Of a DNA stretch of 64,000 nt, positions 26 to 64,000 are shown piece by piece. The notes below the pieces were generated by a model. The model was not told where the DNA came from. It ran no database searches and was given only the letters and a program-made list of their open reading frames with translations. Made by a program: the position numbers and the translations under genes. Source of the DNA: Amoebophrya sp. A120 (lineage: Eukaryota > Protista > Dinoflagellata); contig CAJINV010000010.1 in the NCBI GenBank assembly GCA_905178155.1, positions 1,087,486 through 1,151,485 on the forward strand, in the 5' to 3' direction. Each line of letters begins with the position of its first letter. The first letter of the stretch is position 1.

Positions 26-3000
26 CGTTACGTGTTTGAGTTACTTCCCCTGGTTCGACATTATGTTCCCCGAGGGAAATGAGCTCTGCACCTCCTCTCC
101 CGAGTTCTGCGACCGAATTCTATTACCCGCGCGGCTGTACATGGACCTGATTCTGAACATCCCCGTGATCACGTTCGCCATGTCGCTCATTCTATCAAAT
201 GCAAAAATGTCTGGGTCTGGAAACTTGTGATGCAAGTCAGTCAATAACACATGCGCTGTAATGCGCCGCCAAGCATGACAAGTTCCTTCGTGCTTCTGTG
301 CTGCGTATTCCGCATGAGAAGCTGCGTTTTTGCATGACGAGCGAGAGAGGCTGTTTGTGGTCACGCAATACAGATTTAAGGGCCATGCCAGATCAGCATG
401 ACAAATCTCGCAATCTTCCAGACGCAGACATTTTTGCATTTGATACATTCCGGGCATAGCCGGCGGGACCATGTCCGTCACGGAGGTGTATCCTGTGCAA
501 AAGTATCGTACCCTTAAGGTAAACCCGCATTACAAATTTTATTTCTCATGCTGAGGGGTATATGCATTTATACGAGTGCGATACTTTTGCAGTGCATAAG
601 GTGTTACCCTTCACGATTTTCCCCTACTTCGTGATGCTGTGTGCGCCCTTTTTGGTGGTGGTTTTGACCCTATGGCCCATGCTGTCCATCATCGCACACG
701 GCCTGGGGTCGGTGTACATGATGCTGGGCGCTTTGTTCTACGTAGCCTACGCATTGGTCCTGTCCTACGGTGCTTTCAAAGGAATGCACACCATGACGGC
801 GTTTGAAGACTTGGGATCGGAAATCTACTTATGAACTGCAAAAGTATCGTATTCGTCTAAATGCATGCAGTACGTTGGAATGTTGTTTTTGGTTGGGATG
901 TTGAGCATCACTACGAAATGTTGAAAATATACTGCGACAGGATTTTTGCGCGCAAGCATCGCAAAAGCAAAAGCAAAGCAATGGCGTACCCTTTTCCCTG
1001 TGAAAGCAAAACAGAACATCCGAACCCGAGAAAACACTCCACATCTCTCCAAGCCGATGGATTGCGCAAAACATTCGATTGCCGGAAAAAGAACAATCGA
1101 AAGAAAAACAGCAATGCAATGGTCTACGGGAGAAGTGAATTGCTGGCAACAGTGGCCCGCAGTTGCCCCGATGTGGTGTGGTGATTTTCTTGCGCGCACG
1201 CAAAAAAGAGGGCAAGACGCGATATCAGCGAAAGAATTTCCCAGCTGTCGTTTTGATATGGAACCAACAAAAGGCAACTTTGGAAAATGGGCGAAAGGAC
1301 TCAAAAGCAGGAGCCTCGCTCAAAATAAAATGTAAAGCAACGCTAAGAAATACGCAGCGCAAAAAACAAAATCGAAGCAAAACCAGCAATGCAATGGTCT
1401 AAGGGAAAAGCGCATTGCTGGCGCAAATAGCTACAAGATGCTAGCAGCAGCGGCGCCGGCGCACCTTGGCCCCTATTAAATGCGAGCGCGAAGAAGAGAA
1501 TGCGAAGCCAACAAAGCAGTGCGCTCGCTCTTATTTGGATGGATGCGCTGAAGGCAACAGAAGATAACCTGGGGAGGAAAGACAGCCCCTATAGAGAATA
1601 GCTACGGGGGAAAGGTCCCTGCTACCACGGCAAGCGAGGGGCGGAAATCGACGACGAGCTAGGAAGTTTGAGTGCACGAGAAGCAGAGCCGCTGCGATCA
1701 TCGGAGCGAGTTTGCTTCGGTGCGTGGGGCGAAGGGCGAAGCGAGATTACGGGGGAGGGGGGGGGGAAAGGGCGCGGAGGTCTGCGTTTTCGCCGCGAGC
1801 CGACTCCCCATGCTCGGTCGCCTGTGCGATTTCGATGCCCCGCGCGACGGCGGGCCCAGCCCCCGAAAAAAAAACCAGACGACAGCAGCGCCGGCCCCTG
1901 AAATAACAAAAAGCACGATCGCGCCCGGCGTGGGGCCCTCGCAATGCACGGACGAGCGCACGCATTTTCGAAGAGGAATGGGGGAGCAATGAATCCCAGG
2001 GCCGCAGAATTTCAGCGGGACAACGCGCGACCAAACTGGCTCGGACGCAAGCGGGGCACGCAGCGGCGCACAATTACGGCACACAAGGGCGAACGCAAGC
2101 GGGGGCCCTACGTCCTACAGGAGACAAGAGGGAGCCACGCGCCCTACGAGAGACAAGGGGAGCCGTTGCTGCTGGTGTTTTTCAAGAAAGCCGGGCGACT
2201 TTTTCAGCATGGTCATAAGGCCAGTTCGGATGTAATCCTGGCGACTTTTTCATGGGTTTTTGTGCGTTTTGAAATGATGAAAAACAATCCAAATTGCGAG
2301 CAGTATTGCACTTTTTCAGCCATCACTGCAAGCAAATATGACGCCGATAGGTTTTTTTTGAAGGGGAAAACCACATTTGATCGCGGCGCGCGATGAAATG
2401 TCTACACATTCCAACTAGAACAGCAATTGATCGCAGCAGCTGTTTTGTACGAAATCTACATTCCATCGTAGCAGCAATCGAAATTTCTGCATGCATGACA
2501 AATTCCCTTAGCATGAGAAAGAAAATTTGTAATGCTGTTTTATCTTGAGAAAAAAATTTGTAATGCATGATTGCAATACGAGTACGATGCTTTTGCACAG
2601 GATACTACTCCCGGACGAACGAATCGAAGTTAGAACAACTGTATGAACCGCAAATATGTCTGGGTCTGGAAGGGTGCAAGGTTTGTCATGCTTGTCTAGC
2701 ATGACTGAAAAGTCTGTGATGTGTGTCCAAGAAGAGACCCTTTTGCTTGTCATGCACAAACGCAGTTTCTTTGTCATGCCGAAAGCGCAACACTAAGCCC
2801 TGCAAATATTTCTCATGGAGGTTGGTTGGCTGTGCATTACAGACCATTCACTATTCACAACTAAGCATTGTTACAAGTTTCCAGACCCAGACGCTTTTGC
2901 ATTTGATAAGCTACAGCATATGGCGATTCAGCATTACACGCCGAAGAAGTCGGTGTTTGGCAAGGTGTTGTCAGCTGTGTCGAAAAACAAGTCCACGAAT

Positions 3001-5376
3001 GCGAGCCCTAAAATGTCCCCGGCAGCTCCGAGCGGCGGCAGGGAAAATCAAGTCGTAGTCTGTGGCGGTGAAATGATCCAGAAATGCAACACAACACACA
3101 CGACCCACAGCGAGGCGCTGAGGACCTATAACGGTCGTGTCGACCACCGCTGCACGGAAAAGAACTACGACAGTACGCTGTTGCAAGATGAGGAGGACAA
3201 CAAGATCACCAAAACTCGATCGGAGGAAGAGATTGGGGACTTGGAAATGAGCGAGCACCAGGCGGTCGCGGTACTGGAAGATGTTAACCCGGTCGTCGTG
3301 TTTAATAATGGTAGTACTGGCGATGGACAGCAGGAACAGCAACCGCAAGACTATTCCGCCCAAGAGAACCACACTTTCGAAGACGCCGAGCAGTCGAACG
3401 CAGAAGAGATGCACAGTCTTGACCACCAGAGTTTCGTCGAAGGGCAGCATAGCAAAATGAACCAGAACTCCGCCGCGGACGACGATAGCGAAGATGCTGA
3501 GCAGAAGAACAACAAGCCCTTATCGGTCCGGGTCGTCGGACTAGCCCCGGCTTCCCCCGAGCGGGAAACGAGTCAGCTGAGCATACAGCAAAACGTCACG
3601 GAAGATTCCGGCGGAATCATGCAGTCAACCTTTATAAAGTCCAGCGAGAAACTATGAAAGTGCACAACTCCCCCTCATTTGTATTGCATGCACAGCAATA
3701 TTACAAGCGTTAGAAAGAATACAGTTTTTGCATGCCAAATTTAGACAGGCGTGTAGTGCTATTTGGGCTGCCAGAACTTGCCATGCATACAGTGCTAAGA
3801 GCCAAGGCGTAAGTTAGGCACTTTGCATGACAAACGAGTGGGGGGGCTGTGCACTTTCATAGAAACTCCGAAAGAAGATGTCGCACTACAGCGGCATGAT
3901 AGAATCCCGACTGAAGAACAACCGAACGGGAGGATTACTTGTCGGGTCGACGTTTCTCGGTGGGGTGGACGACATGACGAACAAGGCGAATGGTACAGCA
4001 GGAGGAGGTGTAAATGAAAACAAGCCGAATGTCGAGTACGCACTGGTACAGGCGACGTTGATCAAGCATCTGTGCACGAACGTGAAGAAGAAGATGATGA
4101 ACGTGATGCGCTTGTCACTCCTTATGCAGATTCTGGCGCTGGGGTTCATCGCGGCGGCAATCATCATTGAGGGCAAGGAGTTCATCGATTTGGCCATCAA
4201 TTCCGATATGGTGGCGAGCATCATGCTGCTCTATGAACTGCAAAAGTATCGTACTAGTAGTAGTAATTGCAACACAAATTCGCTCAGCGTGACAAATGGA
4301 ATTTGTCATGCTTATTTAGCTTGAAAAAGAAATCTGTCTTGCATGACTGCGATTAGTACGAGTACGATACTTTTGCACAGGATATGCTCTTCGCGGACGC
4401 AATGATCAACAAGACCATGATGGACCTTATCACTATCGATTTCCAATTCGGAGCGTTTATGCATTGCAAATGTGTCTTGGTCATCTGGAGACACGCAAAC
4501 TTGTCTGTGATGCGTATTTTAGATCACACGAAAATCTGTCATGCATAAACAGCAAGAGCATCGATCCCGTTACCGTTTCTTGTCACCGAGAGCGGAAATT
4601 TGTCATGCGGATTAAGCATTGGTAGGCGCTTGAAAAACCTGTGATGCTAGGGCTTGCATGGCAGACCTTGAGGGTCAAGCAGAGACAGCATGACAAACAG
4701 CTGTGCTCATCCAGACCAAGATAAATTTGCATTTGATAGCGTTGGTCAAAATGCGATTGTACAATGGCTACATGTCCGACGATCAGGACCTGTCCAACCT
4801 GGCGGTCCTTTTCAAATTTTCCGACGCCTTAAACGAACATTTCTGCAAGGGCATCCTCCGGGCGCAGGCCAAGGAGCAGCAGAAGCGGAGCGGGGACAAA
4901 AACGAAACGGATGGGAACAGTGCTACTACGAAAAACCCGACGTCGGTCGGCGCCAAGGGAAGTAGCGCCGCGTATTACAATGAAAAATGCCCCCACGACC
5001 CCCGAACTTGGGAGCATTTGTATTGCAAACCTTTCCAAGTGAAACACTCGCCCTCTTGCATCTATCAGCATCACAGGTTTCCAATCGTGAATAGCAAAAA
5101 TTTGTATTGCAAAAAACCCCAGCAAGAGCGGCGCTTGTCATGCAGGCGATGCGATACACGCCTAGACTCTGCATCAGAAAGATTCACACTCCTTTCATGC
5201 ATGACAAAAAGTTTTCATGTGGAAGCTTCGCATCACAAATTTTTGCAACTTCAGGGGTGGAAGGCATTTTTCACTGTAATACCGCGAAGAATTTGTTTAC
5301 CGCGCCGGTGTCGTTTGTGGCGAACAAAATGGTCTCCGGGGTGAGTCCGCGCTCGAAAAAGGAATGCGTGGATTGA
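26..5376 (+). CDS. Hypothetical multi-pass membrane protein, 3' part (5' end outside window), split by 8 complete introners
   Basis: Exons ~26-192,451-488,604-829,2610-2641,2914-3652,3867-4231,4390-4457,4744-4972,5287-5376 join in one frame after removing each element + one 5-bp DR: ...FAMSLIPGIAGGTMSVTEVLPFTIFPYFVMLC...EIYSRTNESKLEQLQHMAIQHY...KKECVD*. Several hydrophobic segments and an acidic low-complexity middle. Confidence 0.8.
193..445. mobile_element. Introner family A
   Basis: TIR TATCAAATGCAAAAATGTCTG...CAGACATTTTTGCATTTGATA; DR CATTC/CATTC. Confidence 0.92.
489..598. mobile_element. Introner family B (short)
   Basis: TATCCTGTGCAAAAGTATCG...CGATACTTTTGCAGTGCATA; DR AGGTG/AGGTG. 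Confidence 0.9.
830..2604. mobile_element. Introner family B expanded by a nested 1.6-kb insertion
   Basis: Family B ends at 830 and 2604; DR CTACT/CTACT; frame restored on removal. Confidence 0.88.
867..2490. mobile_element. Nested non-autonomous element inside introner
   Basis: Flanked by ATGCAT at 861-866 and 2491-2496; ends GCAG...CTGC with weak imperfect TIR; internal ~45-bp direct repeat (~1104, ~1378); no recognisable transposase. Confidence 0.7.
2642..2908. mobile_element. Introner family A
   Basis: Family A TIRs; imperfect DR AACTG/AGCTA. Confidence 0.85.
3653..3861. mobile_element. Introner family F
   Basis: TATGAAAGTGCACA...TGTGCACTTTCATA; DR GAAAC/GAAAC. Confidence 0.9.
4232..4384. 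mobile_element. Introner family B
   Basis: Family B TIRs; DR TGCTC/TGCTC. Confidence 0.9.
4458..4738. mobile_element. Introner family A (diverged)
   Basis: TATGCATTGCAAAT...ATTTGCATTTGATA; DR GCGTT/GCGTT. Confidence 0.88.
4973..5281. mobile_element. Introner family D
   Basis: TATTACAATGAAAAATGCC...GGCATTTTTCACTGTAATA; DR CCGCG/CCGCG. Confidence 0.92.
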
Positions 5377-6329
5377 GACGTGGAAGAAGGCGGATTTTTT
5401 TTGGTGGGAAAGTAGCGAGGAATCTGAATTTGAATACGAAATGGCTTTAGAAGTTTTTTTAGTAGTTTCACGTAGTATAATCACGACAGCAACAAGCAAC
5501 TCTATCATCTAGAAATAGAAAGCAAAACAGAGTGTGAAAAAAGTTGACAAGATACTGTTTCTGGAAATAAGGCTTGAATAAGTAGAAGAATATCGAAAGA
5601 CCGCGCTTTTTCTCAATATAGCAAATTTTTTAGCAGCAAACTGATTTGAAAAGAATATGCAGATAGTGGTCTCAGCATAGCAAATCGAAAGCATTGACTT
5701 CAAAACTCTCCTTGAAAAATAGCGACTGACTTTATTACAGAATATTTACAAATGATAGATTATTTTCCCATGAAGGTTCGATATCCTCGATTTCCTAGTT
5801 CCATAGATTGCGGACCCTTACACCAACATTCATATGAGTTTGAAAAGTAAAAGCATAGCATGATGAAAAACAAGTGCATACAAATGAAAAGGAAAAATAT
5901 CGAAAGCAAACAGGAATGAAAGAAAAGAAAGAGTCCCCTCTAGCATCCCTGCAAAAGTCGAACGCGAACACAGCGCAGCGCTGGAGCAGTGAACATGAAG
6001 ACACAACATAAATGGGAACGAGAAAATAACATAACAACATGCGCTAGTAATGCTCTCAGCGTTATAATCTATCAGTGCCTAGTACACCTGCACCGCATAG
6101 GTGGGAGGGCATCTTGTGAAGGGGAATCTGTTCCGCAAAGACGACCGCAGTCAACGAGTGAAGAACGAGAGTGTTTGCCAATACCGAGCGCAAATAGAGA
6201 GGCAGCAGGCGAATCTCCGATATTGCACAGATCACGATTGAAAGTCACCGGGGCAGTGAATGGCGAAGATTCTGCGAAGAAGGCCCGCCCTGTGGGCCAG
6301 CAGTGCAGAGCTGAGGAAGCGGGCAAATT

Positions 6330-7300
6330 ATCGCGCGCTCCTGCGCCCCTGCTCTTGGTCCTGCGACCACCTAGCAGCGAAGCCAGTGGCGGCGGCTGGC
6401 GTGTGATTCAGTCGCCCCGCGTGTTGGGTGGCCGCTTTGTTTTCCGGGGGCCCGCCCGGTTGGGCCGCCTGCGCGGGCCGCGCGCGCCCGCGCGCCACGG
6501 CCGGCGGGGTTTTGTGTTGCTGCCAGAGCACCCGGGGAAGGGCCCAGGTAGATGGGTGCCGCCCGGCGGCGGGCCAATAGGCGGCGCGCCCCGCTGCGGC
6601 GCATTGGTTGCGGCATTTCAAAACCAGAAGCAGCCACCGCGATGGAATCGCACGCCCGCGCGCCCCGCGGAAGAAATCTCACGCGCCCGCGGCCGGCGCC
6701 TTCGCGCCCCCTTTTTGCCCCCTCCCCCTCGCCCGTGTCATGATTATTATCAGGCCGGAGAACACGCCGCCGGCCGCGCCCGATTCGGCATCCGCTGGGT
6801 CCAGCGCACACAATTCGAGTCATCATCGCCCGCGCGACGGAAGCCCTGCAGAGTCTCCGCGAGGTGGGGCGAACGCTGCGGAATTCTCTGCCGAATTCAG
6901 CGCGCACATTACGCCGGGCCCGGGCGGCGGGCCTTCTATCAATCTCTCCGCGCGCTCGGGGGATGATCCGGGGCGCCCCATTGCTTTGGCCGGTGTGGCT
7001 GTGTGACTTACTAGCCGGCCGGGCCAAGGTGTTTGCTTGCTGGGCCGGCTGGGTGGTGGCGCCCCCGCTCGTGGCCCTTTTTCGTCCCGGGCCGGCCCGT
7101 TTTTCTTGTGATCTTTGCGCTTGGCGTCGACGTGCCCCTGTGGAGGGCAGGGCAGACGGGACTTGGGTCTGCGCTGGTTTTTTTTGTGCCAGCCTCCCTC
7201 GTTCTACTTGCCGTTGTGGAAGTGGCCCCCGACCGCAGATGGTCCTGTCGCTGTTGCGTATGGATTTTGGCAGCCGACTTCGGTCTCTCGGCCCGTACTC
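6330..7300. repeat. GC-rich non-coding segment, probable dispersed repeat or non-autonomous TE
   Basis: Abrupt very high GC in intergenic DNA; ORFs in all frames are Arg/Gly/Pro/Ala-rich; ends not defined. Confidence 0.35.
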
Positions 7301-7575: not shown

Positions 7576-9930
7576 ATGACTGCCGCCAACCCTTCGCCCC
7601 AGGGTCACGCCTCTGCGGTGGAGGAGCCAGCGGTGGACTACCAGCTCGACCATCGTGTTCCAAGAACGTCATCGTCTAGCACCGAAGATGGATCCACTTC
7701 ACCGGACAAAACCAAACCGATGAACAAGGAGCGCCACCTCCTCACCGGTTGCTATGAACTCCTCCACTTCGGCCACCTCAACGCGTTGCGACAGGTGAAG
7801 CAGTGCTACACCAATTCGCAGTCAAGTACAAGCTCCAGCAGCAGCAGCAGGGACGTCCACGTCGTCGCAGGGATCCACCCGAACGAGGAGATCTTGCGGG
7901 TGAAGGGCGGGGTTTGCATTTTGGACGAAAAGGAGAAGGAAAGACTGCTGTTGGGGTGCAAATTTGTCGACGAGGTGGCGCACAACGTGAGATACGACAC
8001 TATGGCGTTCTCAATTGTTACATTCTCTACTGTTACATGGATTTGTGATGCGAGAGTGGCAAAATTGAAAGGAAGGATCTTGCGCGTCTTGCATGACAGA
8101 TTTGGCACAGATTCTAAGCCTGTTGGGCCGTCTCAGAACTTGTCATGCGAAGCAGCTCGATGGCGTCGATAGTCAAGGTAATTTTGCACGACAAATCATG
8201 TAACAGTTGAGAATGTAACGTTTGAGAACGCCACAGACACGATACAGCCCGAAGAATTCAACTGCGACTACTGCTTATCAAATGCGAAAATGTCTGGGTT
8301 TGGAAGAGTCATGCTGTTTTTGCATGACACAGAAGGTCTGGCATGGAAGCTCTAGCATCACAGGTTTCGAGAAGCTTCCGCGATGCCGAACCCGCATGAG
8401 AAATCCCCCATTTTGGTGACAGAAAGTCGGCAGCTTTTGCTACCTATGCATGAGAGATTTTTCTGTGTTCTAAAATGCGCATCACAAGTTCGGATCCTTC
8501 CAGACCCAGACACTTTTGCAGTTCATACTGCTGGCACGGGGACGATGCGGTGGTGGTGCAAGGTAGGAAATATCTTTTTCGTTTGGTAGTTTGGAGAATC
8601 TGAATCATCACCATGACCACAACTTGCATAATTAATACTACACTCGTCTTTTTTTCATGCGAGACGAACACTTTAGATTTAGAATGGTGGAAACGTATCA
8701 CTTCGCACATGACAAATACCCACTCTACTACTACTCCTCGCTTCCCAGCACAGGCACCGACATATTCGGGTACGCGAAAAACACCGAGAAATTCAAGACT
8801 CTTCGTATGGCCTGCTCAAGCGTTACAATCTCAAGCGTTATAATAGAATCTGGAATTTGTGTTGCATGATGGGCATGACAGACTCGCACAGCGTTCCACC
8901 TTTTGCAATACAAATTTCGACAGAATGTAGAGGGGTTTGGAGCTCCGGAACTTGTCATGCGCAACCCTATGAGAGTTGGCTGGATCAACATGCTCATCAT
9001 GCAAGACAAATCTCAGATTCTATTGTAACGTTTGAGATTGTAACGCCTGAGCGGGTTATACTTCGCCGCACCGAGGGAATTTCAACCACGCTGATGATAG
9101 CGCGGTTTTTCACGAACCAAGAGCGAGAGGGCGGGTTTTCCGGGTCCAACAGCCCGTCGAAGACAACACGAGGTGCAGGAGGTGGAGCTGCTCCGAGCCC
9201 CTCGCCCGCGCTTTCGGAGGAAGAGGAGACGCTGATGGAGATGAGTTGTCTGGGGGAGAATTTGGCGGAGAAGATTCTTTCGAAGCAGGACAAAACGGAA
9301 ATCCAATACATCAACGCGACGGCGTCGCGCATCTCCCGCTTTTTCCTTCCCAACCGGCCGCGGTCGGTGTGCAAATCCGTGGTGTACTTGCAGGGATGCT
9401 TCGACCTGTTCCACGTGGGTTACTTGGACCTGCTCCAGCTGATTCTCGAAACGGAGCGGAAACGGAAGAATTTGGAATCCGTGAAGGACGTCTTTCTCAT
9501 CATCGGGGTGTTGCATCACACAACAACATCTACTACGACGCATAATTCTGATGTTGACAACGACGGCGATCATCATGTCAAGACGCAGTTCTGCCTGCAG
9601 TCCCTGCACGAGCGGGCGATCTCCATGCTGTCGCTGCGGTGCGTGGACGATGTGGTCCTTGACGTGCAAAATAAGGTGGACGAGACGTTTCGACGGTCTC
9701 TGGGGATCACAACGGTGTATGGGATCGAAAACCACTGCGACTTTGTGAACGACGAGAGGAACGCCAGTTGCGTCGACGCGTGGGTGGACGGGTTTGGGTA
9801 CTTTAGCTCGCGGACGATCCAGCTCCGGGTGTTGAAAAGCAGGAAGGTTTTGAAGGAGAGGCAGGCGAAAAAGAAGGAACCCGAGATGGCGGTGGCCGGG
9901 TCGATCAACATGATCGACAGTGGGGCTTGA
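7576..9930 (+). CDS. PCYT2: Ethanolamine-phosphate cytidylyltransferase (two CT domains)
   Basis: Exons 7576-8000,8241-8275,8533-8562,8754-8805,9066-9930 give GCYELLHFGH, GCKFVDEV, CDYCWHGDD, RTEGISTT and a second domain GCFDLFHVGY...SLHERAISMLSLRCVDDVV. Confidence 0.9.
8001..8235. mobile_element. Introner family E
   Basis: TATGGCGTTCTCAA...TTGAGAACGCCACA; DR GACAC/GACAC. Confidence 0.9.
8276..8527. mobile_element. Introner family A
   Basis: Family A TIRs; DR CTGCT/CTGCT; splits the CDYC|WHGDD motif. Confidence 0.92.
8563..8753 (+). other. Canonical GT-AG spliceosomal intron
   Basis: CAAG|GTAGGA...CACAG|GC; joining gives VVQG-TDIFGYAK in frame; no TIR. Confidence 0.8.
8806..9060. mobile_element. 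Introner family E variant
   Basis: TATGGCCTGCTCAAGCGTTACAATCTC...GAGATTGTAACGCCTGAGCGGGTTATA; DR CTTCG/CTTCG. Confidence 0.9.
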
Positions 9931-24099: not shown

Positions 24100-24834
24100 G
24101 TAGTGAGGTCACGAACGTTCTATCCTAGCGGTTTTTTTGACAGCTCTCATCCAAAACGACCGGCAGTTTTCAATCGGCCGGAAGCGTTTTTTGACATAAA
24201 AAATTTCCAATTATCAATCGGCCAGGGCTTTGCCAACAAACAAGCCCGGGCGGATTCTATCGGTTCCCGATGGATAAAACGACGCAGGGGAGCCGGCAAA
24301 AGGGACGCCCTTCCGAGGCGCCCAGCGCATCTGTTTCCGTCGATTTGGGGCGCCCAAAAAGGGACGCCAAGAAAATGCAAAGACGACAAAATCCCTGAAT
24401 CCGCACGGTATGGGCCGTATTTTGGCCCACTTTTGGAGGTCGCAAAGCCGGCCACCAAAAGCGGGCATTTGTAATGCGGGGAGTAGGGCAAAAAGCGCAA
24501 CTTTTTAACAAAAAAAATACAAAAATGCAAAGGCCGCCAAAATCTGTGAGCTAACCCGCATGCTACGGGCCCGATTTGGGGCGCGCAAGGGGCCGGCCCT
24601 GGCGGAGGCCCTTGGTGGGCCATAGCATGCGGGGAAAGCTTCCGGGCTTGGAAGAGACGAAGGCGGAGGCCTGTAGCTGTGATTTTTAGCATCCGCGACA
24701 CCATGCGGAGTAATCTTATACGCGACGGAATACTCGAGGCAAAGAACGCGACTACTTTGCTCACTGGTGGAATGCGCGAGAACGGTAACGAAAATGGGGT
24801 CGGGCAGTCAAAAAAACCGCGTTGACCTCACTAC
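24100..24834. mobile_element. Intergenic MITE-like TIR element
   Basis: TIR GTAGTGAGGTCA (24100-24111) / TGACCTCACTAC (24823-24834) plus subterminal GCGGTTTTTTTGAC / GTCAAAAAAACCGC; no TSD visible. Confidence 0.7.
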
Positions 24835-34178: not shown

Positions 34179-34860
34179 AGACAAGGAAAATTCCAGAAGT
34201 ACATCAAAAATCGAGCACCCCCCTCCCACGGGGTGGCGGCGGGGCGAGATGATTTGTCTGCGTTGCGGCTAGTAGCGGCCCGCCCCATTTCTGCAAGCCT
34301 ATCGGCCCGGACCAGCCGCGACTCCTTCTCGAGTAGAAAGGGCAAGCGCGCATCTGCCGCGCAAGTGTTTCGCCTTTGGCGCAACTGGCTCGGGGGCTCG
34401 TTTACAAACAAGGCCGGCCAAAACTCTACAAAGGCGACAGGCGGAACCCAGGGGCCCCCCTCCAGGGGGGTGCCTGAGGGGGGTACTTTTTTTGATTCCG
34501 AAATCGGCCATTTTAGGTCGGGGGAAGGAACGCCAAGGGGGGTGCTTTTTGGGGGTGCTTTTTCTTGGGCAAAAGGGGGGCCCTTGGATTGGCCCCGCGG
34601 CGCGACTTTCCAGGAGACGGCCATTGCTCATTGGATCCGGAAAGACCTGGCCGCAGAATTCTTGAAGTATTGTCGTGGTGTTGCTCTGGGTGGTGACGGA
34701 AGACGAACGCCGAAGCCGGAGGCGTTTCCGGTTGTGTGGGACCCACTGAAGAAAGCCGCCACCTAGATGAAGCCTACCCGAGCCAACCGCCTGTCCCGTC
34801 ACCCCACCCACGGGAGGGGGGTGCTCGATTTTTGATGTACTTCTGGAATTTTCCTTGTCT
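34179..34860. mobile_element. Mutator-like MITE with ~50-bp perfect TIRs
   Basis: AGACAAGGAAAATTCCAGAAGTACATCAAAAATCGAGCACCCCCCTCCC and its exact reverse complement at the right end; flanks TTATGGTTT/AAATGGTTT (7/9 match, possible 9-bp TSD). Confidence 0.85.
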
Positions 34861-36156
34861 AAATGGTTTCTAGTATTTAGCTTTCGTTATTTCGGAGTTC
34901 TATTCGCAGCAGCATGGAGCAGCTCCTGCAATGAGACGATGAAAGAGTCCGCAGCTGGATGATGGCAAGCGGTTGCGCGATTCTGTTTCAACTGAAAATC
35001 GGTGAAATTGATTGTAGAAGCTGCGGCCTATGGAAAAAAACATCAGGAAATTCTTGCGATATATAAAACAAGGCGAAAATAAGAGCATGAATGTTCGTAG
35101 TTCGAAGGATCATGATAGAATGAACCACAAGATTATCGATGATCCTGCAAGGAGCTTGATTTGAATGCAATCGGTCCGAGGGTCGATGGAGTGGATTCGG
35201 TTTCGGAAGGTAGAATAAAATGGCATCTCTCTGTACTTAGCGCGAGCGATCCGCGGTGGAGGAGGGAAATAAAAAAGCCTCAACGTGATTAAGATCTTCT
35301 TCAAATAATAGCAAAGGATGATACGATACACGGAAGGAAACGAAATCAAGATCCGAGCGAAAATATAGTATCGCAGTTTTTTTTTGTGGAAATCGTTGCC
35401 TCTATTGTCGGTCGAAGTCGATGTCGAAGGAAGGATCCGCGTTTTTGTCTGGACACAGCAAGCCTATCTACTAACATCGCTGCCTGGTTGATGTTGTGAC
35501 GAGTTTGAAGTTTATATTCCTTCGGAAGCATCATGCCTGCGTGTCAACTTTGCATTCCCTCCCAGGTCCCAAAACTTGAAAAAACTTGAAGTTTAAACTC
35601 GAATAGCAACTTCAGTGGTCTTCATCACAGGCTTTAATCTACTTAAAGTATTTCGTCATCGTCTAGATCAACATCAAAATCAACAAGCTGCAATAGGACC
35701 TAGAAGTAGGGCGCGCCTGTCCTGCTGCTCGCTCGTTAGCTTCTCGACCTATCGCAACCAATACGAAATACGTTCAGCCTGCTCAGAATAGTTTCTCGTG
35801 TTGGAGAAGGAACGAACACGAAGTAGCACGCAGCAGTCACAGTCTGATACCAAAAAGCAGCACACTGTTGTAGTCAACAACATTACATCAACATCTTCAT
35901 CGCTTTTAAGACTCAATCTTTATCTTCTTCAGCTAAATTTTCTCTCCGAACAAACCGCGACCTGTGGAAATTTAAAGCATCCTCTTCGAGTCTGCGACTT
36001 AAAGAGAAAACGTTTATTCATCATTAATAGTACCCTATTATTTTCTACTTCTATTTGATACAACTAGAACTTTTCAAAAAGAACTTTACACCAGCGAGCG
36101 CTTTTATTCATAAAGCTAAAAACAAGAACCACTACAAAAGAAGAAGTTGCAAAAAG

Positions 36157-40933: not shown

Positions 40934-42257
40934 AGGACAGTGACTTTGTCTCGTCGAAGATCGATTTGCAGAGTCACATTTTCGAAATTATAGAGACACC
41001 AGCCAAGCGAGACAAACTTTCGGAACGCTTTCTGACGGATGCTTGGTGCGCATATTAGTTAACATCACACTCCGTGATGTTTGCATGGTCGACGGATCAT
41101 GTGGTCAGCCTCCAGTTGTACTTCTCTGTCGATCAAGCAAAAGGCACAGCTTCAGCAGGAGCGAGTTGGCCAGACCATGACCACCGGAGATCAGACCACG
41201 TCGTGTAGTTTAGCCCCAGTACGACAGCACGTTGGTGCGAACAAGGCCGGAGGGGAGGAGGAGGAAACTACATGCAACCGCACGACCAATGCACCAGGAC
41301 GAGGGTTTAATATTCAACAAGAACACCAGCCGGCATTATTTCAGTTGTCCGACTTCTACCTAGTACTGGAGCGAGATGATGAACAAGGAAACGACGGTAC
41401 AGTAGAGAATTATCAGCTTCAAAATCAAAGCCAGGACAATTCTATTAATTTTTGCCGTCGGAGCAGCTCCTCGTCCTGTAGGCCGTGGCCGTTATTAAAC
41501 GAGGCAAAGCTCGCGGAATTTTTTTTCGTGGACATTCTGAATAGGACAAAACCCTATCACCTGTTTTACGGCGGACCGTTCAGCAACTGGCACCGGCAGC
41601 AAGGCGTTTTCTACGTGGAGAAGCAGGCTTACAATTGCGGAGAGCAGTACCTGATGGCGGAGAAGGCGAAACTATTTCAAGATTTCGGCACGCGGAAGAA
41701 AATCCTGCAAGCGGCGCATCCAAAGGAGCAGAAACAGCTGGGGCGCAAGGTGAGGAATTTTGACGAGGCTGTGTGGACCAAGCACCGCCTGGGCATTTTG
41801 TTGGCAGGGTTGAGGCAAAAATTCTCCCCCGCACAGAACCCGGAGATGAGCAACTACTTGCTGCAGACCAAGAAGAAACTGTTGGTAGAAGCCAGCCCGG
41901 TGGACACGATCTGGGGCGTGGGACTGAGCGAGCACGACGACAGCGCGCTGGACAAAAACGCCTGGTTGGGAAAAAATCTGCTGGGCCTGGCATTGATGAT
42001 TGTACGCGAAGAACTTAATACAACAACTTTGACGCTACAGTAGTATGTATTCGCGGATGAACATGAAGCAGAAGTTGGGCCGGAAAAATCAAGAACACAG
42101 GAGGTTCGTCGGTCAGGATGCGCATAAGTAATGTAGGTAGGCATGTTGCAGCACCTGCTCCGGCTGCTTTGTTGATAGATACCGACAAAAATCCGTTGTT
42201 CCACATTTGATACTCGCCAGGACAGTGACTTTGTCTCGTCGAAGATCGATTTGCAGA
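40934..42257. repeat. 39-bp perfect direct repeat flanking the NADAR gene
   Basis: AGGACAGTGACTTTGTCTCGTCGAAGATCGATTTGCAGA at 40934-40972 and 42219-42257. Confidence 0.9.
41177..42043 (+). CDS. NADAR (YbiA-like N-glycosidase) domain protein, intronless
   Basis: FYGGPFSNW, EQYLMAEKAKLFQD, PKEQKQLGRKVRNFD, QKF..QNP, LVEASPVDTIWGVG, GKNLLGLALMIVREEL; first ATG at 41177. Confidence 0.92.
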   Translation: MTTGDQTTSCSLAPVRQHVGANKAGGEEEETTCNRTTNAPGRGFNIQQEHQPALFQLSDFYLVLERDDEQGNDGTVENYQLQNQSQDNSINFCRRSSSSSCRPWPLLNEAKLAEFFFVDILNRTKPYHLFYGGPFSNWHRQQGVFYVEKQAYNCGEQYLMAEKAKLFQDFGTRKKILQAAHPKEQKQLGRKVRNFDEAVWTKHRLGILLAGLRQKFSPAQNPEMSNYLLQTKKKLLVEASPVDTIWGVGLSEHDDSALDKNAWLGKNLLGLALMIVREELNTTTLTLQ

Positions 42258-42857: not shown

Positions 42858-43799
42858 ATGAGTGCTGGCAAGAGCTCCAACTCGGCCCAACATCCGGAAG
42901 ATGAAAGAAATGCCTCTATCCTGTGTAAAAACGTCCCCACCCCAGAGTTGTCATGCAAATCTGCATGCTCAAAAGAAAATGTTTGTTATGCGGGGGCTGT
43001 CGCGCTCTGTATTTTAGGCAGTTCGCGCTCTGTATGTTATCGTTCTGTATGTTGGGCTGTCGCGCTCGGCTAGCTGGCCGGGCTGTACTGATCAGGTGTG
43101 GTGGGTAGCTCCCGACTGGTTGGCACCTTTATTGGGGCGACTTGCTGTGGTAGCGCTCGGCTTTTGTATGTTGAGGTCGCCGAAAGTGCTTCCTTGCCCA
43201 CCCCCCGGGGAGGGGATCCTTGACCTGTGGCGCTGGGTGCGGGTGTCCACTACATGATGATGATGATGATGCGGAGACACATGAAAAGCCTTTTCTTGCG
43301 CGCTTTGGAATTTGTAATGCGCCAATCAGCATAATACACTAGATCTGTGATGCTGCTGAACTACCTCAAACAGCACTACACTGCGATTCCAAATTTGTCA
43401 TGCAAAACAGCCAAAACTCGCGGAGTTGTCTAGCGCATTCCCCATCTTGACTCTGGTATGGGGACGTTTTTGCTCAGGATAGCCTCTAGTACAACAACAT
43501 CAACTGTGCACCCGGGGGCAACAACTACAGCACAACATCAACAAGATCTCCTTCTCCAGTCTCAGCTCGACGCGAAGGACCGGCAGCTCCGAGCAGCGCA
43601 GGGTGTGAATGATTTTCTTCGTAACCAAGTGGCGCGTTTCTTTGCCCAGCACGAGGAGGCAAAATTGCTCCTTCGAGGAATGGGGAGCGGCTCGCACCGG
43701 AATGAATTTTTTGGAAGAGCGCACGCGTTTGTGGACGGAGGACGGCTATACTCTCCAGCACGGGTGGAGGCCAGTATGATGAACAAGCACGAGTCTTGA
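42858..43799 (+). CDS. Short coiled-coil hypothetical protein, paralog A (possibly truncated or pseudogenised)
   Basis: Exons 42858-42916,43487-43799: MSAGKSS...QSQLDAKDRQLRAAQGVNDFLRNQVARFFAQHEEAK; homologous to 45315-46698. Confidence 0.55.
42917..43481. mobile_element. Introner family C with nested retroposon-like insertion (42994-43268)
   Basis: DR GCCTC/GCCTC; nested piece ends in (TGA)n and is flanked by ATGCGG repeats. Confidence 0.85.
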
Positions 43800-43803
43800 T
43801 GCG

Positions 43804-47051: not shown

Positions 47052-47225
47052 TATCACACAGAAAAGAGCAGGCAGGTCATATTTGTGAAGCAAAAACAAA
47101 TACACAGAAATATCCGCGCTGCATATCCTACACAGCATGCTATGGGGCCGCGCATGACAAATTTTTCTTTGTATTTATTTTTGCATTACAAACTACATGC
47201 CCTGCTAGCTTGTTTCTCTGGGATA
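47052..47225. mobile_element. Introner family G2
   Basis: TATCACACAGAAAA...TTTCTCTGGGATA; DR TACGC/CACGC. Confidence 0.75.
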
Positions 47226-47585: not shown

Positions 47586-47991
47586 TATCAAATGCAAAAG
47601 TGTCTGGGTCTGGAAGATTCTGACACTTGTCATGCACGTTTTGCATGGACCCTGATGTCTGTGATGCGTGCCCTAGCGTCACAGATTTTTTGAGAGCTTC
47701 TTGATGCCTATTCCGCATGACAAATGCCCTCTCCGCGTAGGGCGTGGAGCGGGTGTCCACCTAGGGGTATTGGCAGAGGCTAAATCTGTTCTAACGCCAC
47801 GGTATCGGCAGAGGCTAAATCTGTTCCAACGCCGCCCAGACAGGAGTTAAAGGTCAACACACACACACACACACACACGCGTAGCAAAAATTACATTCCT
47901 TTTGGTACTCATGCAATACACATTTTTCTGGAATCCAAACGCAGCATCACAAGTTGCATTCTTCCAGACCCAGACACTTTTACATTCGATA
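47586..47991. mobile_element. Introner family A with nested 137-bp (CA)n-tailed insertion
   Basis: DR AGCAT/AGCAT; nested 47741-47877 flanked by CGCGTAG repeats. Confidence 0.88.
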
Positions 47992-49784: not shown

Positions 49785-52700
49785 ATGTTGCGTCAACATC
49801 CAGCTGCAGCGCCAAGCAGCATGATGAAAGAACCGGTTGTGGGTCATCAAAATCTTTTGCGTAGAAATAATTTCGGGGCCGCGTACTGCTACCTAGCGCT
49901 TCTAGGTGGATCATTTTACCGGGCCACAGCTTATCCACAGTAAATTTCCTGTACACGTACAAATGCTGTCTCTACATGACAAAATTTGCCTTCAGTCCTA
50001 GTCTAGCATGACAAGTTGTACACTGCAAGTTAGTAAAATTTGTCATGCATTTTGTACAACATGTACGGGAAATTTACATTGCATACAGCTGTCGTGATGA
50101 TGACGGGCAGCAGGAGTACAAATTCGAAACATATGGCAACGGCAAGTACTTTTTTTCAAAAAACTTTTTTTTTTGGCTACATATGAATCACCGGCCGTGG
50201 CGAGTAAATAGCTTTTTCCTAGCAAAAATCGAGTGCATGGCAACAATGTCAGCACTGGCATACTGAGTTCGTTAGCCTAAAGCCAGAGAGATGGCTGCAT
50301 TGGTGGCGCACTGTCTCACGGGTTCGGGTCCGTTATGTCCGGCGTACATGTTGGACGGCCAGCCCCTGCACTGCTGCTGCTTCAATGAAAGAAAAGCGCA
50401 GCCAGCCCGAGACCGGATGTGCTGCGCGTTGAAGTCAGTGGAGGGCCCACGCCTCAACAGGCGAAACAGACGGCGCGCACGGCTTTCGAAAAATTCCGAG
50501 CCGTGCGCGGCACTGCCGAAGACATTGATGCCGCGGCCGCAAATCTCTTTCGGAGCTGGGTCGCGGGAGGTGGTTCTTCGCCTTCGGCGGATTTTCCTGG
50601 AAAGTGACAGAACTCCTTGTGAAGCCGCACACCGAAATCCTTTTTGGGGCCCCCCGGAAGGCCCCCCAAACCCCCCCTCCTTTTGGGCCTTGGAAGACAG
50701 CTACTCCCCCTTGATATCCCCACGAAGGAGGGTCCCCCAAACCCCCCCTCAAGGGGGGGGCCCGGCCCCCCTTTTCGTTTCCGCAAGTTTGCTGCTTTTG
50801 GCGAGCTGCGTCCTTGAAAATGATAACCCGGATTCGGCCCCGAAGGAAAGTAGCACAATGCGGCCGGGAATAGAATCAAAGACAGCAGAGGCGTGAGCCT
50901 CCTCTGTTTTTCTTTCGTAGGGCACTTCGAAAGCTAGGGCGGGCCACGTCTCGTAGCCGTGCTCGTTTGAGATTGCCGCCCTCGAGAGAACCAGTCAGGG
51001 CTGTGGTGACTTATCTTGAGTCCCCTTTCGATACCCCAAAGCCGCGGCGGGGGGCTGGCGTGCTACCTGCCTTGGGGCTAAAGCGTTGAAGACCGAACCC
51101 AAGGTAGCGTCTGCAGCCGGGACGGCCTCCCTTCAGCCTTCGGGCCAGCAAGCTATCACCTAACCCGCGCCGAAGCTTTTCTGCTATTCTACTCTGCGCA
51201 TACCCGCTGGCATGCCTATAAAGTGCCGTGAAATCATATGTAGCAAAAAAAAAAAGTTTTTTTGGAAAGAGTCTTTACAGTGATGATGACGAGCAGCAGG
51301 AGTACAAATTTGAAACAAAAAAGCGTTATGTCTTCAACGGGCGTTAGCATACAGAAGGGTGAATTTGCAGTGAATTTGTATTGCGTGGCATGATGCATGA
51401 ATTAAGGGGCATATGAAGAACACGAGGAGGACGCCAGGCAGTCCGCGTTCCGTGTAGTTGAAAGGCTAGCACTTGCCTGGTGCCATTTGGATGGTGACGC
51501 TCACTGTCAGAGCCTAAAGTAGAGACGCACGTCTTTGCTGCCTGGTGCGTTGCCAAGAAGCAAAGGCGGCCTGTGGCGGTCTCACAATATAACACTGCCT
51601 CTGCGGAGTCCATAGTGGGTCGAGAGGGAGGGGGCCGAAGCCTCAACAGGAGAGGGGCACTGGGTCAACATCTAAGTGGGTAGCTCTCACGGGTTGTGGC
51701 TGGCTCGGCTTGGATGTCTGGAGACATGTTGCAATGGATGCTAGCATCGCCTGCGTTGCTCTGTAGCTCGCATCTTCCCTGCTGTGTTCCTGCCCCATCT
51801 TGTTCGGGTCCTCTAGTTTTCTTCGACGTGATCCCCAGGTCAGAAATTCTCCTGGTGAATTTTGAGGCTTTTTCTTTTTGTTAAACTTTTCTGGAGCTCC
51901 AAAACCCGCAGTTTCTCATGCGCTGCCGGATAGACGCGCCTGCCGGAGAGATCACGCGCCTGCCGGATAGACGCGTCAAAGCTCTCGGCCGGGTCCTTTC
52001 GCCCTTGCTTTCGCGCCTTCGTCTTGCCTAATTGCATGCGCTCCGCGGCCCTTGTTTTTGACGTCTTTGCCGCCGCTGTTGCAGTGCTCTTATGCGAGCA
52101 CAGGAACAAGGCGCAAGGACATGGTCAAAGAACGACGCCCAGGCCATGTCCAGTTGCCCACTGCATAGCCGGCGAGTTCTGCGGTGTGCAGAACGCTCTT
52201 CCCAGAAGGGCAAGAGGGACAATGTCCCGGCGGACTCATCTGCAATTTGTCATGCAAAATTCACTAGAGATTCGCCACGTCTCATGCTAACGCGTGTTAA
52301 AGCTCTAGAAAAAGCGACGTAGAGATGATGACGGGGAGCAGGAGTACAAATTCGAATCAAAAAAGCGACGTAGAGCAGAAAAACCTCATCTCAGCTGGGA
52401 GATCTGGCGCAACTACTTGGAACCACGACCACGGGCGCGCGGATGAAATGGAGGAAACGACTGCGCTTGCGTCAGATAATATTTTGAAAAATAGATCGCA
52501 CGACGAGGTGGGCCCCGCCTCCACTCTGCTCCAGCTGGATAAAAAACTACAGGAAAAGGAGGGGCCCGAAGACGAGGACCAGGCTCGGGAAAATGGAGAA
52601 TTTCGGAGGGCTCCTTCCGCGGCCCCCAAGCGAACGTATGGAGCGACCTATGCCCTCGCCACGTTTGGGCGAGACATGAGCGCCGATCAAGAGGAGCAGG

Positions 52701-60164: not shown

Positions 60165-60455
60165 TATGGAATTGCAAACATCGATCTGGGTTTAGATGTG
60201 TCAATCGGAAGGTGCGTTTGGATTCCAAAAAAAACTGTATTTTTGCATCCGCAGCAAAGGGAATGGAATTTTTGCTACGTCGCGGAGAGGGTATTTTTTG
60301 TCATGCGGAATAGGCAACATCAGGAAGCCCTGAAAAATAAAAAATCTGTAATGCTAGGGCATGCATCACAGAGGACGTCATGGCTCATGCAAAAGAACGT
60401 GCGTGACAAGCCTTAGAATCTTCCAGACATCATCCAGGGATATTTGCAATTGATA
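60165..60455. mobile_element. Chimeric family A introner (left end matches the 61145 element, right end matches the 63178 element)
   Basis: Flanks AAAGG and GCTGC do not match each other, but each matches a different element in copy 2; switch point ~60217. Confidence 0.8.
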
Positions 60456-60985
60456 GCTGCGTGAAGCACACTATGAACTGCAAAAGTATCGTACTCGTAT
60501 AAATGCATGACAAATTGTTCCCCCAGCATGAGAATTCAATTAAGATTTGTAATGCGGATTTACCTTGAGAAAAAAATTTGTAATGCAAGACTTGCATTTA
60601 TACGAATACGATACTTTTGCACAGGATACACACAATGCTGAAGTTTGGGACCGCTTTCCAGCAGTATCAAATGTAAAAATGTCTGGGTCTGGAAGGATGC
60701 AGAGATTTGAGATGCAGCTTTGGCATGAACCCTGATGTCTGTGATGCATACCCTAGCATCACAGATTTTTTGAGGGCTTCATGATGCCTATACCGCATGA
60801 GAAATGCCCTCTCGCCGTCGCAAAAACTGCAACTCTTTTGCTGTTCATGCAATACAGATTTTTGTAGAATCCAAATGCAGCATCACAAGTTGCATCCTTC
60901 CAGACCCAGACATTTTTGCAATCCATAAGCAGAGTACTTGGACCAGTTGGAAGCAGAAGCCAACGGCGAGCTCTAGTAGTACGAA
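60217..60985 (+). repeat. Near-identical duplicate of 63233-64000 (gene 3' end, including introners 60472-60628 and 60665-60927)
   Basis: Colinear sequence with a few substitutions and indels; stop at 60974-60976; assembly N at 61058. Confidence 0.9.
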
Positions 60986-61115
60986 ATTAATTTATTAAAG
61001 CCCAAAAGGACAAGCTGCAACCGCATTGCGTTGTACATCATCGCGTCACATTCAGAANTTTAAGCATGCAGAGTTGCATGACAACTATGGTGTGGGTACG
61101 TTTTTACTTAGGATA

Positions 61116-63992
61116 TGCGCAGCGTTTTGGCAAGGGGGAAAAGGTATGGAATTGCAAACACCGATCTGGGTTTAGATGTGTCAATCGGAAGGTGCGTGAG
61201 CGTGACGCCGAGATCTGTATTGCATGAAGGGGATTATGTACATAGCCAGTTTGTTGAAAGGCAGCTTCTTTGTCAACATGCTAAATGTTACGTCGAATTA
61301 ACTCGCGATAATAGATAAGAACTGAATTGTATCTTCGATGATGCGTTCATGCCGGGCAAAAGGGTGCTTTATTGTCATCCCAGGCTCACCAGCACGACTT
61401 TGTTCTATCCAGACCCAGACACATTTGCAATGCATAAAAGCAACGCTGTCTTCATTCGGAACGCGGGAAATCTGGTGCGCAAGCAGGTGGAGCTATCACA
61501 CAGAAAAAAGTTTTTAGCAGGGGGTTATAATTTGTACTGCAAAAATAAGTACAACTAACAAATACACAGAAAATCGAAAACCTGCATAAGTATCCCCTAC
61601 ACATCATGTGACCATGGGCTCGCCCATGGCAGATACCTCAGCTGTGCATTTATTTTTGCATGAGGTACAACAAATGTAGTTAATGTTGACTGCTAGTAGC
61701 TTTTTTCTTTCTGAAAGGCGCTCTTTGCGGGAATTTTGGAGCGGTACTTGATGCCGCACGAGCATGAAGAAAAGTTTACGGACCTGAAGCGCATTCTCGG
61801 CAATCCGAAGCGGCGCCGTCGCGCTGCGGATGATGACACGACCGAAAAAAGTGCCGACAACGAGGCAGAGCGAATCCCAACGATTTTGTCAATCTCGTCC
61901 GACTACGCAAAAGCCCCGGAGCACATGGGCCTCTTCGTCAGCTTCTTATCCTATGTAGAAAGGTCCCCATCCCATAGTCAACATGGGGAATCGGTTTGAC
62001 AAATCCACACGTTTTGGCTGTTTTGCATGACAAGCTTGGACTCGTAGTGTAGTGCTGTTTGACGTAGCTCAGCAGCATCACAGATCTACGATATCACGCT
62101 GATTGGAAAATGAAAAATTTTTCCAGAACACGACTAGAGAATGCTTCTCATGGGGCTCCGCATGAGAAACGTTGCCAGCTTGCAGAGTTGCATTACATTT
62201 ACAGCTGTGGGGTGGGGCCGTTTTTAGATACGATACTTCTTGCAGCGAATCTACGGAGCGGCGTTTAAGCGCGGCGACCGGATAGCGTACCGTATTACAA
62301 AGAAAAATGCCCCCACCCCCGAACTTGGGAGCATTTGTATTGCAAACCTTTCCGAATGAAACATTCGCCCTCTTCTTGCATCTATCAGCATCACAGGTGT
62401 CCAGTCGTGAATAGCAAAAATTTCTATTGCAAAAGGCCCCAGCAAGAGCGGCGCTTGGCATGCAAGCGATGCGATACACGCCTACACTCTGCATCAGAAA
62501 GATCCATACTCCTTTCAATCATGCATGACAAAAAGTTTTCATTGGGAAACTTCGCATCACAAATTTTTGCAATTTCAGGGGTGGGGGGCACTTTTCACTG
62601 TGATATACCGCGGGTATGATCCCGACCTGGTCCATGTGGACGAGAATGGCACGGAGCTGCAGGGTATCCTGTGCAAAAGTATCGTATTCGTATTGCAATC
62701 ATGCATTACAAATCCTTTTGTCAAGTCAAATCCGCATAACAAATTTTATTTCTCATGCTGAGGAAATTTGTAATGCATTTATACGAGTGCGATACTTTTG
62801 CAATGCATACAGGGGAACAATAATGTGCCGAACACGTCGTTCCGTATCCACTGAAAAAAACCCTTGTTCCCCATCCATTTTTTGCATGACAGAAACCGAA
62901 TTTTGTGCATGTTTTGCATGACAAATTGGATGTGGGCGGGGTTTTTTTCCTGTGGATATTCCACTATCGGTACAGCGAAACGGATATGAAATGCAAAAGC
63001 ATCGTACTAGTAGTAGTAATCGCATTACAAATTTGCTCAGCATGACACATGGAATTTATCATGCTGGTTTACCTTGAAAAAGAGATTTGTCATGCATAAA
63101 CGCGATTACTACGACTACGATACTTTTGCACAGGATAACGGAGGACAGCGCCATGTTTCTGTTCGATCGGGAGCTGCTATCAAGTGCAAATATGCCTGGG
63201 TCGGGAAGAATGCTGCAACTTGTCATGCTGCATTTGGATTCCAAAAAAAACTGTATTTTTGCATGAGCAGCAAATAAGGGGATGGAATTTTTGCTACGCG
63301 GAGAGGGTATTTTTTGTCATGCGGAATAGGCAACATCAAGAAGCCCTGAAAAATAAAAAATCTGTGATGCTAGGGCATGCATCACAGAGGACATCATGGC
63401 TCATGCAAAAGAACGTGCGTGACAAGCCTTAGAATCTTCCAGACATCATCCAGGGATATTTGCAATTGATAGCTGCGTGAAGCACACTATGAACTGCAAA
63501 AGTATCGTACTCGTATAAATGCATGACAAATTGTTCCCCCAGCATGAGAATTCAATTAAGATTTGTAATGCGGATTTACCTTGAGAAAAAAATTTGTAAT
63601 GCAAGACTTGCATTTATACGAATACGATACTTTTGCACAGGATACACACAATGCTGAAGTTTGGGACCGCTTTCCAGCAGTATCAAATGTAAAAATGTCT
63701 GGGTCTGGAAGGATGCAGAGATTTGCGATGCAGCTTTGGCATGAACCCTGATGTCTGTGATGCATACCCTAGCATCACAGATTTTTTGAGGGCTTCCTGA
63801 TGCCTATACCGCATGAGAAATGCCCTCTCGCCGTCGCAAAAACTGCAACTCTTTTGCTGTTCATGCAATACAGATTTTTGTAGAATCCAAATGCAGCATC
63901 ACAAGTTGCATCCTTCCAGACCCAGACATTTTTGCAATCCATAAGCAGAGTACTTGGACCAGTTGGAAGCAGAAGCCAACGGCGAGCTCTAG
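61116..63992 (+). CDS. Large hypothetical protein, complete 3' part (copy 2), with 10 introners
   Basis: Overlaps copy 1 at MRSVLARGK; continues NAVFIRNAGNLVRKQVELFAGILERYLMPHEH...FLQRIYGAAFKRGDRIAYRGYDPD...ELREAHNAEVWDRFPAEYLDQLEAEANGEL*. Confidence 0.75.
61145..61436. mobile_element. Introner family A (diverged)
   Basis: DR AAAGG/AAAGC. Confidence 0.85.
61494..61716. mobile_element. Introner family G2
   Basis: TATCACACAGAAAAAAG...CTTTTTTCTTTCTGAAA; DR GGAGC/GGCGC. Confidence 0.72.
61947..62235. mobile_element. Introner family C
   Basis: DR CTTCT/CTTCT. Confidence 0.9.
62293..62605. mobile_element. Introner family D
   Basis: DR TACCG/TACCG. Confidence 0.92.
62665..62809. mobile_element. 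Introner family B
   Basis: DR CAGGG/CAGGG. Confidence 0.9.
62845..62958. mobile_element. Introner family K (114 bp)
   Basis: TATCCACTGAAAAAAACCC...GGGTTTTTTTCCTGTGGATA; DR TTCCG/TTCCA. Confidence 0.85.
62985..63137. mobile_element. Introner family B
   Basis: DR ACGGA/ACGGA. Confidence 0.9.
63178..63471. mobile_element. Introner family A
   Basis: DR GCTGC/GCTGC. Confidence 0.9.
63488..63644. mobile_element. Introner family B
   Basis: DR CACAC/CACAC. Confidence 0.9.
63681..63943. mobile_element. Introner family A
   Basis: DR AGCAG/AGCAG. Confidence 0.9.
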
Positions 63993-64000
63993 TAGTACGA

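Follow-up and report, generated by a model that had tools for sequence, protein, structure and literature searches.

The TAT...ATA introners of a 64,000-nucleotide stretch of Amoebophrya sp. A120 DNA (the window, i.e., the whole stretch that was analysed) share one short interior motif across all 12 of their terminal inverted repeat (TIR) classes. We consider it probable, if narrowly, that this motif is a double-stranded-DNA site for one mobilising protein serving all TAT...ATA classes during copying. The putative shared protein, whose binding we infer, would be either a transposase or a host co-factor. This reading rests on the presence of the site in all classes, on the spacing of site pairs by three helical turns, and on a core that is kept in young copies and lost in old ones.

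The elements were called without reference to the motif, by TAT...ATA ends and a flanking 5-bp repeat, which gave 70 candidates. On curation four of them were dropped (three with poor TIRs and one interrupted) and 14 were added by eye. Some of the added elements were found around orphan motifs, which makes the resulting set of 80 partly circular and the motif-blind gene parse given below the cleaner test. The division into classes A to L was made by visual inspection of BLAST clusters and element ends. The features are:

193 to 63943: the 80 curated TAT...ATA introners, 12 classes (A-L), 110-705 bp, 20,743 bp in total
193 to 445: one of 26 class A copies in the window (mostly 242-315 bp); TIR core GTCTGGGTCTGG
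489 to 598: class B element, TIR core GTATCGTACTCG; 15 copies, 110-182 bp
3653 to 3861: class E element; three copies (3653, 31908 and 45502)
4973 to 5281: class F element; three copies; seven sites, including the pair 5199/5230
8001 to 8235: class G element; four copies (8001, 8806, 18427 and 25487)
8563 to 8753, + strand: TIR-less canonical GT-AG intron (predicted), with a single matrix site at 8711
15910 to 21840, + strand: gene with 17 introners (classes A, B, C, D, F, G, H and J), whose excision restores a 482-codon frame
16052 to 16317: class A element; contig joint from 16047 to 16319 (266+5 nt)
16391 to 16700: class H element; three copies; direct pair 16535/16566 (31 bp)
16728 to 17022: class C element; 13 copies
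19218 to 19378: class J element; two copies
19983 to 20288: class D element with a mismatched duplication; joint from 19981 to 20293
20342 to 20633: class C element, reversed; no strict motif, three to four variant sites; joint from 20336 to 20634
21040 to 21318: class C element; seven same-facing sites, forming three 31-33 bp pairs
24952 to 28578, + strand: mitochondrial carrier gene with 10 introners, whose excision restores a 456-codon frame
27675 to 27882: class I element; three copies (27253, 27675 and 59876)
29978 to 30971: class B element into which a GC-rich repeat is inserted, with three sites to the left of the repeat; outside the 80
36659 to 36955: degenerate class A element; one site; within a restorable 536-codon frame
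47052 to 47225: class K element; direct pair 47152/47183 (31 bp)
62845 to 62958: class L element of 114 bp; no more than two sites, a variant (62884-62893) and a strict one (62916-62925), 32 bp apart

The element tips have the form TAT[C/G]-N6-A-run in all classes, and the class-weighted end profile is T 1.0, A 0.99 and T 0.99 (the caller demanded TAT/ATA), with A at 0.71-0.89 in positions 11-14. The 5-bp target duplication is perfect in 53 of the 80 elements and mismatched in 27. Copies form clusters of 22, 14 and 10 in the window, and the same families are found at 46 loci of JACKZZ01 contigs. The TIRs had been described as unrelated; this does not hold for the tips, which are common to all classes and in classes A and B extend to exact outer 13-mers, but it does hold for the interiors. 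When the sites are masked and the outer 32 nt removed at either end (up to four copies per class, 12 shuffles), interiors of different classes align with scores of 12-31, against shuffle means of 14-23, while within-class scores are 42-252. The interiors are thus not alignable between classes, as they would be if the motif reflected descent only.

Several other properties of the elements were observed. Single mismatches in the duplication fall at the outer positions 1 and 5 in 12 of 16 cases. Within the first 14 bases of classes A and B, TIR positions 4-10 vary more than the neutral interior (about 20%) and occur as discrete types common to both classes, which suggests end swapping. Nested inserts of other repeats lie in the introners at 29978-30971, 31908-32612, 42917-43481 and 47586-47991, and a 131-bp piece is common to 42917 and 38191. 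A near-identical segmental duplication (60165-60990 and 63178-64000, with N between, near 61058) contains at least three exons and introners. Nearly all TAT elements are located in or beside genes, and neighbouring elements are separated by exon pieces of mostly 11-116 bp, which is about the size of linkers. Run X9, apparently from another strain, has reads that match part of 24096-24213 and raw RNA reads that match a class A right arm with its sites (26516-26591), with other flanks; as its matches are confined to short repeat pieces, this run was left out of the evidence.

The strict motif, GCATBACAA, matches 152 times over the two strands (225 to 63904), where 2.66 ± 1.63 matches are expected (100 dinucleotide shuffles, maximum 7); the multi-copy motif of the original prediction is therefore real and enriched over background. 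The elements of the motif-blind caller, 19.5 kb, contain 131 of these matches, and the 80 curated introners with their 5-bp target duplications contain 141. Of the other 11, broken or interrupted elements account for seven (2493-2558, 30020-30085 and 61076), predicted GT-AG introns for three (31349, 31625 and 52247) and an intergenic MITE for one (24469). Several copies had been claimed for the families, but at least two strict copies are found in only 44 of the 80 elements and none in nine. The 114-bp element at 62845, also proposed as multi-copy, has a single strict copy with a variant 32 bp upstream.

Iterative matrix training gives a fuller motif of ten letters, GCA(T/a)(G/c/t)A(C/g)A(A/g)(A/g), with near-invariant G1, C2, A3 and A8, and 370 sites in the 80 elements of the window (191 on the + and 179 on the - strand). 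A matrix trained on 11 classes and applied to the remaining one found 341 matches (14.6 in shuffled sequences), and for every one of the 12 classes the held-out matches outnumbered those in each of 100 shuffles. No matches were returned by an Rfam search. The whole motif resembles the Oct4-Sox2 composite site; we take the likeness to be a coincidence, though it suggests a two-part binder.

The direct pairs of sites, 31-33 bp apart, are present in 11 of the 12 classes (class-weighted score 8.01, against 1.07 ± 0.52 and a maximum of 3.42 in 2000 random placements); no such pair is found in the window copies of class E. Relative to the TIRs, the first site is located about 36-52 bp from the element end (score 9.12 against 4.54 ± 0.67, for a distance range picked after viewing the histogram), and in class A sites are seen ~37-48 and 75-85 bp from the ends. 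The number of sites and their orientation relative to the element end vary by class. In class C nearly all sites face the same way, and the class itself is oriented both ways with respect to the + strand (six and seven copies). The spacer between paired sites shows only a weak T-rich bias.

A metagenome scan with the pair pattern (125 stretches, 11 of 64 parts) returned stretches resembling the elements exclusively from JACKZZ01 contigs, which appear to come from the same or a very close strain; the replication is across loci, not species. These contigs provided 46 non-overlapping loci (163 kb) with 136 elements and a site density of 20/kb inside the elements and 2.8/kb outside. After removal of 29 elements containing the search pattern, the pair spacing was replicated in the remaining 107 (8.07 against 1.23 ± 0.44), with 55 pairs at 31 bp, 35 at 32 bp and 19 at 33 bp. 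The 12 viral pair matches and the metagenome matches outside JACKZZ01 showed no similarity to the elements and were rejected, as was the locus L094, a simple tandem repeat.

The motif-blind gene parse covered the window and 27 JACKZZ01 loci over 1.5 kb, with 180 of 207 TIR introns kept. The TIR introns hold 839 sites in 46 kb, whereas the exons hold 31 in 80 kb (24.5 in shuffled sequences) and the intergenic DNA (17.9 kb, chosen by eye) eight (7.3 in shuffled sequences). Together with the absence of strict matches from both intronless ORFs of the window and the single one in the MITEs, this bears out the impression that the motif is rare in exons, intronless genes and intergenic MITEs. The intergenic GC-rich MITE-like elements (6278-6937, 24128-24820, 34176-34863 and 50139-51281), which have other termini, contain one strict motif in all (24469). 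Both intronless ORFs are introner-free though their neighbours are packed: 11856-14318 encodes 820 aa with no Pfam match, and 41099-42043 a 314-aa NADAR protein, whose named matches are bacterial or archaeal.

Reading frames are restored when each element is removed together with one 5-bp duplication. In the 15910-21840 gene, the lengths of the X4 contig pieces (1085 and 564 nt) correspond to the exact excision of all 17 elements, and the 536-codon frame is obtained by excising 36659-36955 and 37325-37566. The contigs X1 and X4 show joints of the element plus 5 nt, which X5 is without (e.g., 16047 to 16319); the runs X1-X5 (at most two samples, one study) are contigs guessed to be RNA, none of which is recorded as such. 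The borders of the excised TIR elements are not GT-AG, both at the X1/X4 joints and at the seven TIR elements joined in the locus L042, and within one gene class A and C elements are excised in both orientations. Three joints with mismatched duplications (19978-20293 in the window, element 19983; 6411-6621 and 6859-7059 in L042, elements near 6416 and 6864) jointly fit only a cut after base 4 of the duplication. The intron is consequently N+TAT...ATA+4 nt and starts one base before TAT. The canonical donors are GTAT in 20 of 34 introns, with TAT at intron positions +2 to +4, in the same register as in the elements, and nearly all predicted folds show paired TIRs. Judging from these few joints, splicing likely rests on the ends, i.e., on paired TIRs and TAT at intron +2 to +4, in either orientation. 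A drift to G at intron +1 is not claimed, as 9 of 12 position-5 duplication mismatches have the intron-side G in the window, but only two of nine in JACKZZ01.

Two further joints without TIRs, from 21795 to 22186 and from 22258 to 22531, have two sites each and ends that are not cleanly GT-AG, and were excluded from the counts. Both are contained in a transcribed stretch (21767-23511) that converges on the 15910-21840 gene.

The core of the site is constrained between sister copies. In 37 disjoint pairs, for which a third copy served to define the sites, it differs at 17 of 723 positions (2.4%), against 656 of 4091 other interior bases (16%), and its divergence is lower than elsewhere in nine of nine classes. 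TIR positions 11-28 are also conserved, and positions 4-10 vary freely. Damage to the 5-bp duplication was used as an age clock, which is only five bases long and is subject to alignment noise and to the bias of the caller towards intact duplications and TIRs. By this clock, departures in the core amount to 2.7% where the duplication is perfect (122 copies) and to 9.8% where it is damaged (36 copies), a difference of 7.1 points (bootstrap 3.6-10.8). Those in TIR positions 11-28 go from 4.5% to 8.1%, and those in other conserved columns from 10.6% to 14.0% (+3.3 points, 0.1-7.2). The erosion persists when the four most degenerate copies are left out, and site density declines with three age proxies (rho 0.19-0.34), although in the 12 most diverged copies it still stands at 74% of the normal value. 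In the sister pairs, the core difference of 2.4% (1.4-3.7) compares with a duplication mismatch of 2.7% (1.3-4.9), which would fit neutral decay, though the comparison carries little weight by itself. A core kept in young sisters and eroding with age indicates that the site is maintained in the copied lineages and is unprotected after insertion.

The sites are also found in canonical GT-AG introns without TIRs. The first gene parse over-called such introns (213) and was filtered to 44, in which a few false window calls remain; two containing the search pattern were dropped. The resulting 42 predicted introns hold 18 sites, nine sense and nine antisense, against 3.9 ± 1.9 in shuffled sequences, with at least one site in 13 and a density of 2.5/kb, compared with 18/kb in the TIR elements. 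In a cleaner set of 34, from which the window calls and three doubtful introns were removed, a site occurs in 12, and the two most enriched hexamers are GCATGA and CATGAC (17 against 4.4 each). At L042:3300-7500, where X1-X4 contigs join five GT-AG introns and seven TIR elements, four of the five introns hold a site scoring at least 15.9, while one intron and 744 bp of intervening exon are without. The site-bearing canonical introns may be old introners; in the accessible text of PMC7789003, 24.8% of A120 strain-specific intron positions are canonical. A search of the TIR-less introns for remnants found no ATA-plus-4 at their 3' ends, and no link of the sites to GTAT donors was found in the canonical introns (7/20 vs 5/14).

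Because of this enrichment, the idea of a splicing marker stays a rival. A host DNA-binding protein would mark introns on the chromosome and aid co-transcriptional splicing in a spliceosome reported to be without U1 snRNA, the introners spreading by dense packing of its site. The motif hexamers at the top of the TIR-less introns, the sites in contig-joined GT-AG introns, and the shuffle-level exons and intergenic DNA all favour such a marker, as does the U1 snRNA that went undetected in A25 or A120 according to the part of PMC7789003 available. Against it, 29 of the 42 predicted canonical introns and one of the five contig-joined ones are without a site, the canonical density is far below that of the TIR elements, the core is unprotected in older copies, and an element with a single site lies inside the restorable 536-codon frame. 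We regard this explanation as unlikely. In a related scenario, which we hold to be unlikely to the same degree, unrelated TIR elements converged on 31-33 bp pairs of a host intron-marker site, with intron recognition in either orientation and a mass invasion of genes as the result. The original prediction that the motif lets a TIR element behave as an intron is not supported as the main reading, given the same site-less introns and eroding core and the lack of strand bias described below; the evidence favours a shared mobilising protein over a splicing mark.

A spacing of 31-33 bp corresponds to three helical turns of DNA. This geometry, the mostly 11-116 bp exon pieces and the class B size of ~150 bp would suit a site that recruits a chromatin or elongation factor and makes the insertion tolerable (e.g., by nucleosome positioning), with no role in transposition or splice choice. 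However, no 10-bp AA/TT periodicity was found, few sites are spaced by about 10, 21 or 42 bp, and the loss of sites is tolerated in old copies, making such a factor distinctly improbable.

An action of the motif in RNA, as a stem-forming partner or as a site for an RNA-binding protein, is more doubtful still. Gene-strand folds predict that 78 of 188 sites pair with another site, but for class C (0 of 24) and class L (0 of 2) no such pairing is predicted. The sense-strand bias expected of an intronic splicing signal at the RNA level is not observed (422 sense and 417 antisense sites in the TIR introns), and elements of classes A and C are excised in both orientations in one gene. The class C sites are nearly all same-facing and are unpaired, and the class is present in both orientations in one spliced gene; the motif is most simply read as a site in double-stranded DNA. 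The proposed cis signal bound by one factor thus stands in so far as it is common, constrained and not explained by alignable descent, and it is probably read as DNA; the binding itself we infer.

Least probable of all is a functionless relic of one ancestor of all classes, which would account for the shared tip consensus, the outer 13-mers of A and B and the modest masked cross-class scores (AD 29/22, EH 28/21, DG 29/22 and GH 31/22, 12 shuffles), but a neutral relic cannot hold 2.4% against 16% nearby while alignability elsewhere is lost, and site number and orientation differ by class. Common ancestry of the element ends is possible and compatible with function.

For the shared mobilising protein, a dimer or oligomer would bind the site pair and help to bring both ends together. 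The common tip, TAT[C/G]-N6-A-run, would act as the cleavage signal, and an integrase-like cut would leave the 5-bp duplication. The inner TIR would be free to drift into many classes, so that one enzyme could serve all of them, and TIR-less introns would have their sites left over from old insertions. Against a shared protein stand the class-dependent orientation of the sites relative to the end, the enrichment in TIR-less introns, and the site density kept in diverged copies. No autonomous element or transposase was found in the 227 kb examined, where the longest elements are 705 and 631 bp, and no integrase ORF in any element examined (all at most 705 bp). The TIR patterns gave no matches in viral contigs and one in prokaryotic genome contigs. 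The available part of Farhat 2021 (PMC7789003) reports no transposase in A120.

The introners themselves are already published. In the text portions of PMC7789003 and PMC12130899, A120 introners have inverted repeats beginning with TAT, followed by seven looser bases and an A run, with short direct repeats at the borders and non-canonical splicing; the ends, border repeats, splicing and many families are as here, and family lengths in Dataset S7 (near 106, 149, 160, 209, 252-260 and 305 bp) match our classes. Some families of that dataset are labelled 'co-opt 5 prime'. The same portions describe no shared interior motif, 31-33 bp pairing or fixed N+TAT donor register. The motif and its pairing were found in no searched text, which comprised the introner papers, their supplements and a review (PMC11282704), in text form only and with 41 of the 58 A120 rows of Dataset S7.

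The closest parallel is the Emigrant/Lemi1 MITE, in which, by the accessible text of PMC1636448, subterminal repeats are bound cooperatively by the transposase; hAT, CACTA and Sleeping Beauty are cited alongside for such repeats. As there, a short site is repeated inside the TIRs in mixed orientation and in a conserved arrangement, and in Emigrant/Lemi1 the arrangement matters for cooperative binding. In that case, however, a single family is concerned, the repeats resemble half of its TIR and the transposase is known, whereas here one site extends over 12 TIR classes with unalignable interiors and into TIR-less introns. A variant of the motif occurs in the tips of some A, B and J elements only (13 matches, 8 bp from an end), at the most variable TIR positions.

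The Ginger2/Tdd elements, as given in the consulted part of PMC2836005, have TGTNR termini, a 4-5 bp duplication (5 bp in TDD-4/5) and a Gypsy-like integrase. The introners share the 5-bp duplication but differ in their TAT termini. A120 family 38 is annotated 'Ginger; 5-bp TSD, TA/TA termini' in the rows available from Dataset S7 (PMC12130899), and by this annotation its duplication and TA ends match the elements described here. The left half of the motif, TGCATG, matches the ApiAP2 site of AP2-EXP, TGCATGCA, which the available text of PMC6631176 presents as a palindrome enriched in intergenic DNA, whereas the present motif is asymmetric and at background level there (8 vs 7.3).

Should the binder turn out to be a host intron marker, it is in the DNA that introns would be defined. 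Splicing of TIR elements in either orientation could follow a simple rule, given by the N+TAT donor register. The text available from PMC7789003 counts tens of thousands of A120-type introners, divided among about 1,950 families, for which it gives neither a transposase nor a rule of splicing. The constrained site with its fixed spacing, present in all 12 classes, suggests one shared machine rather than thousands, and provides a defined bait to identify it.
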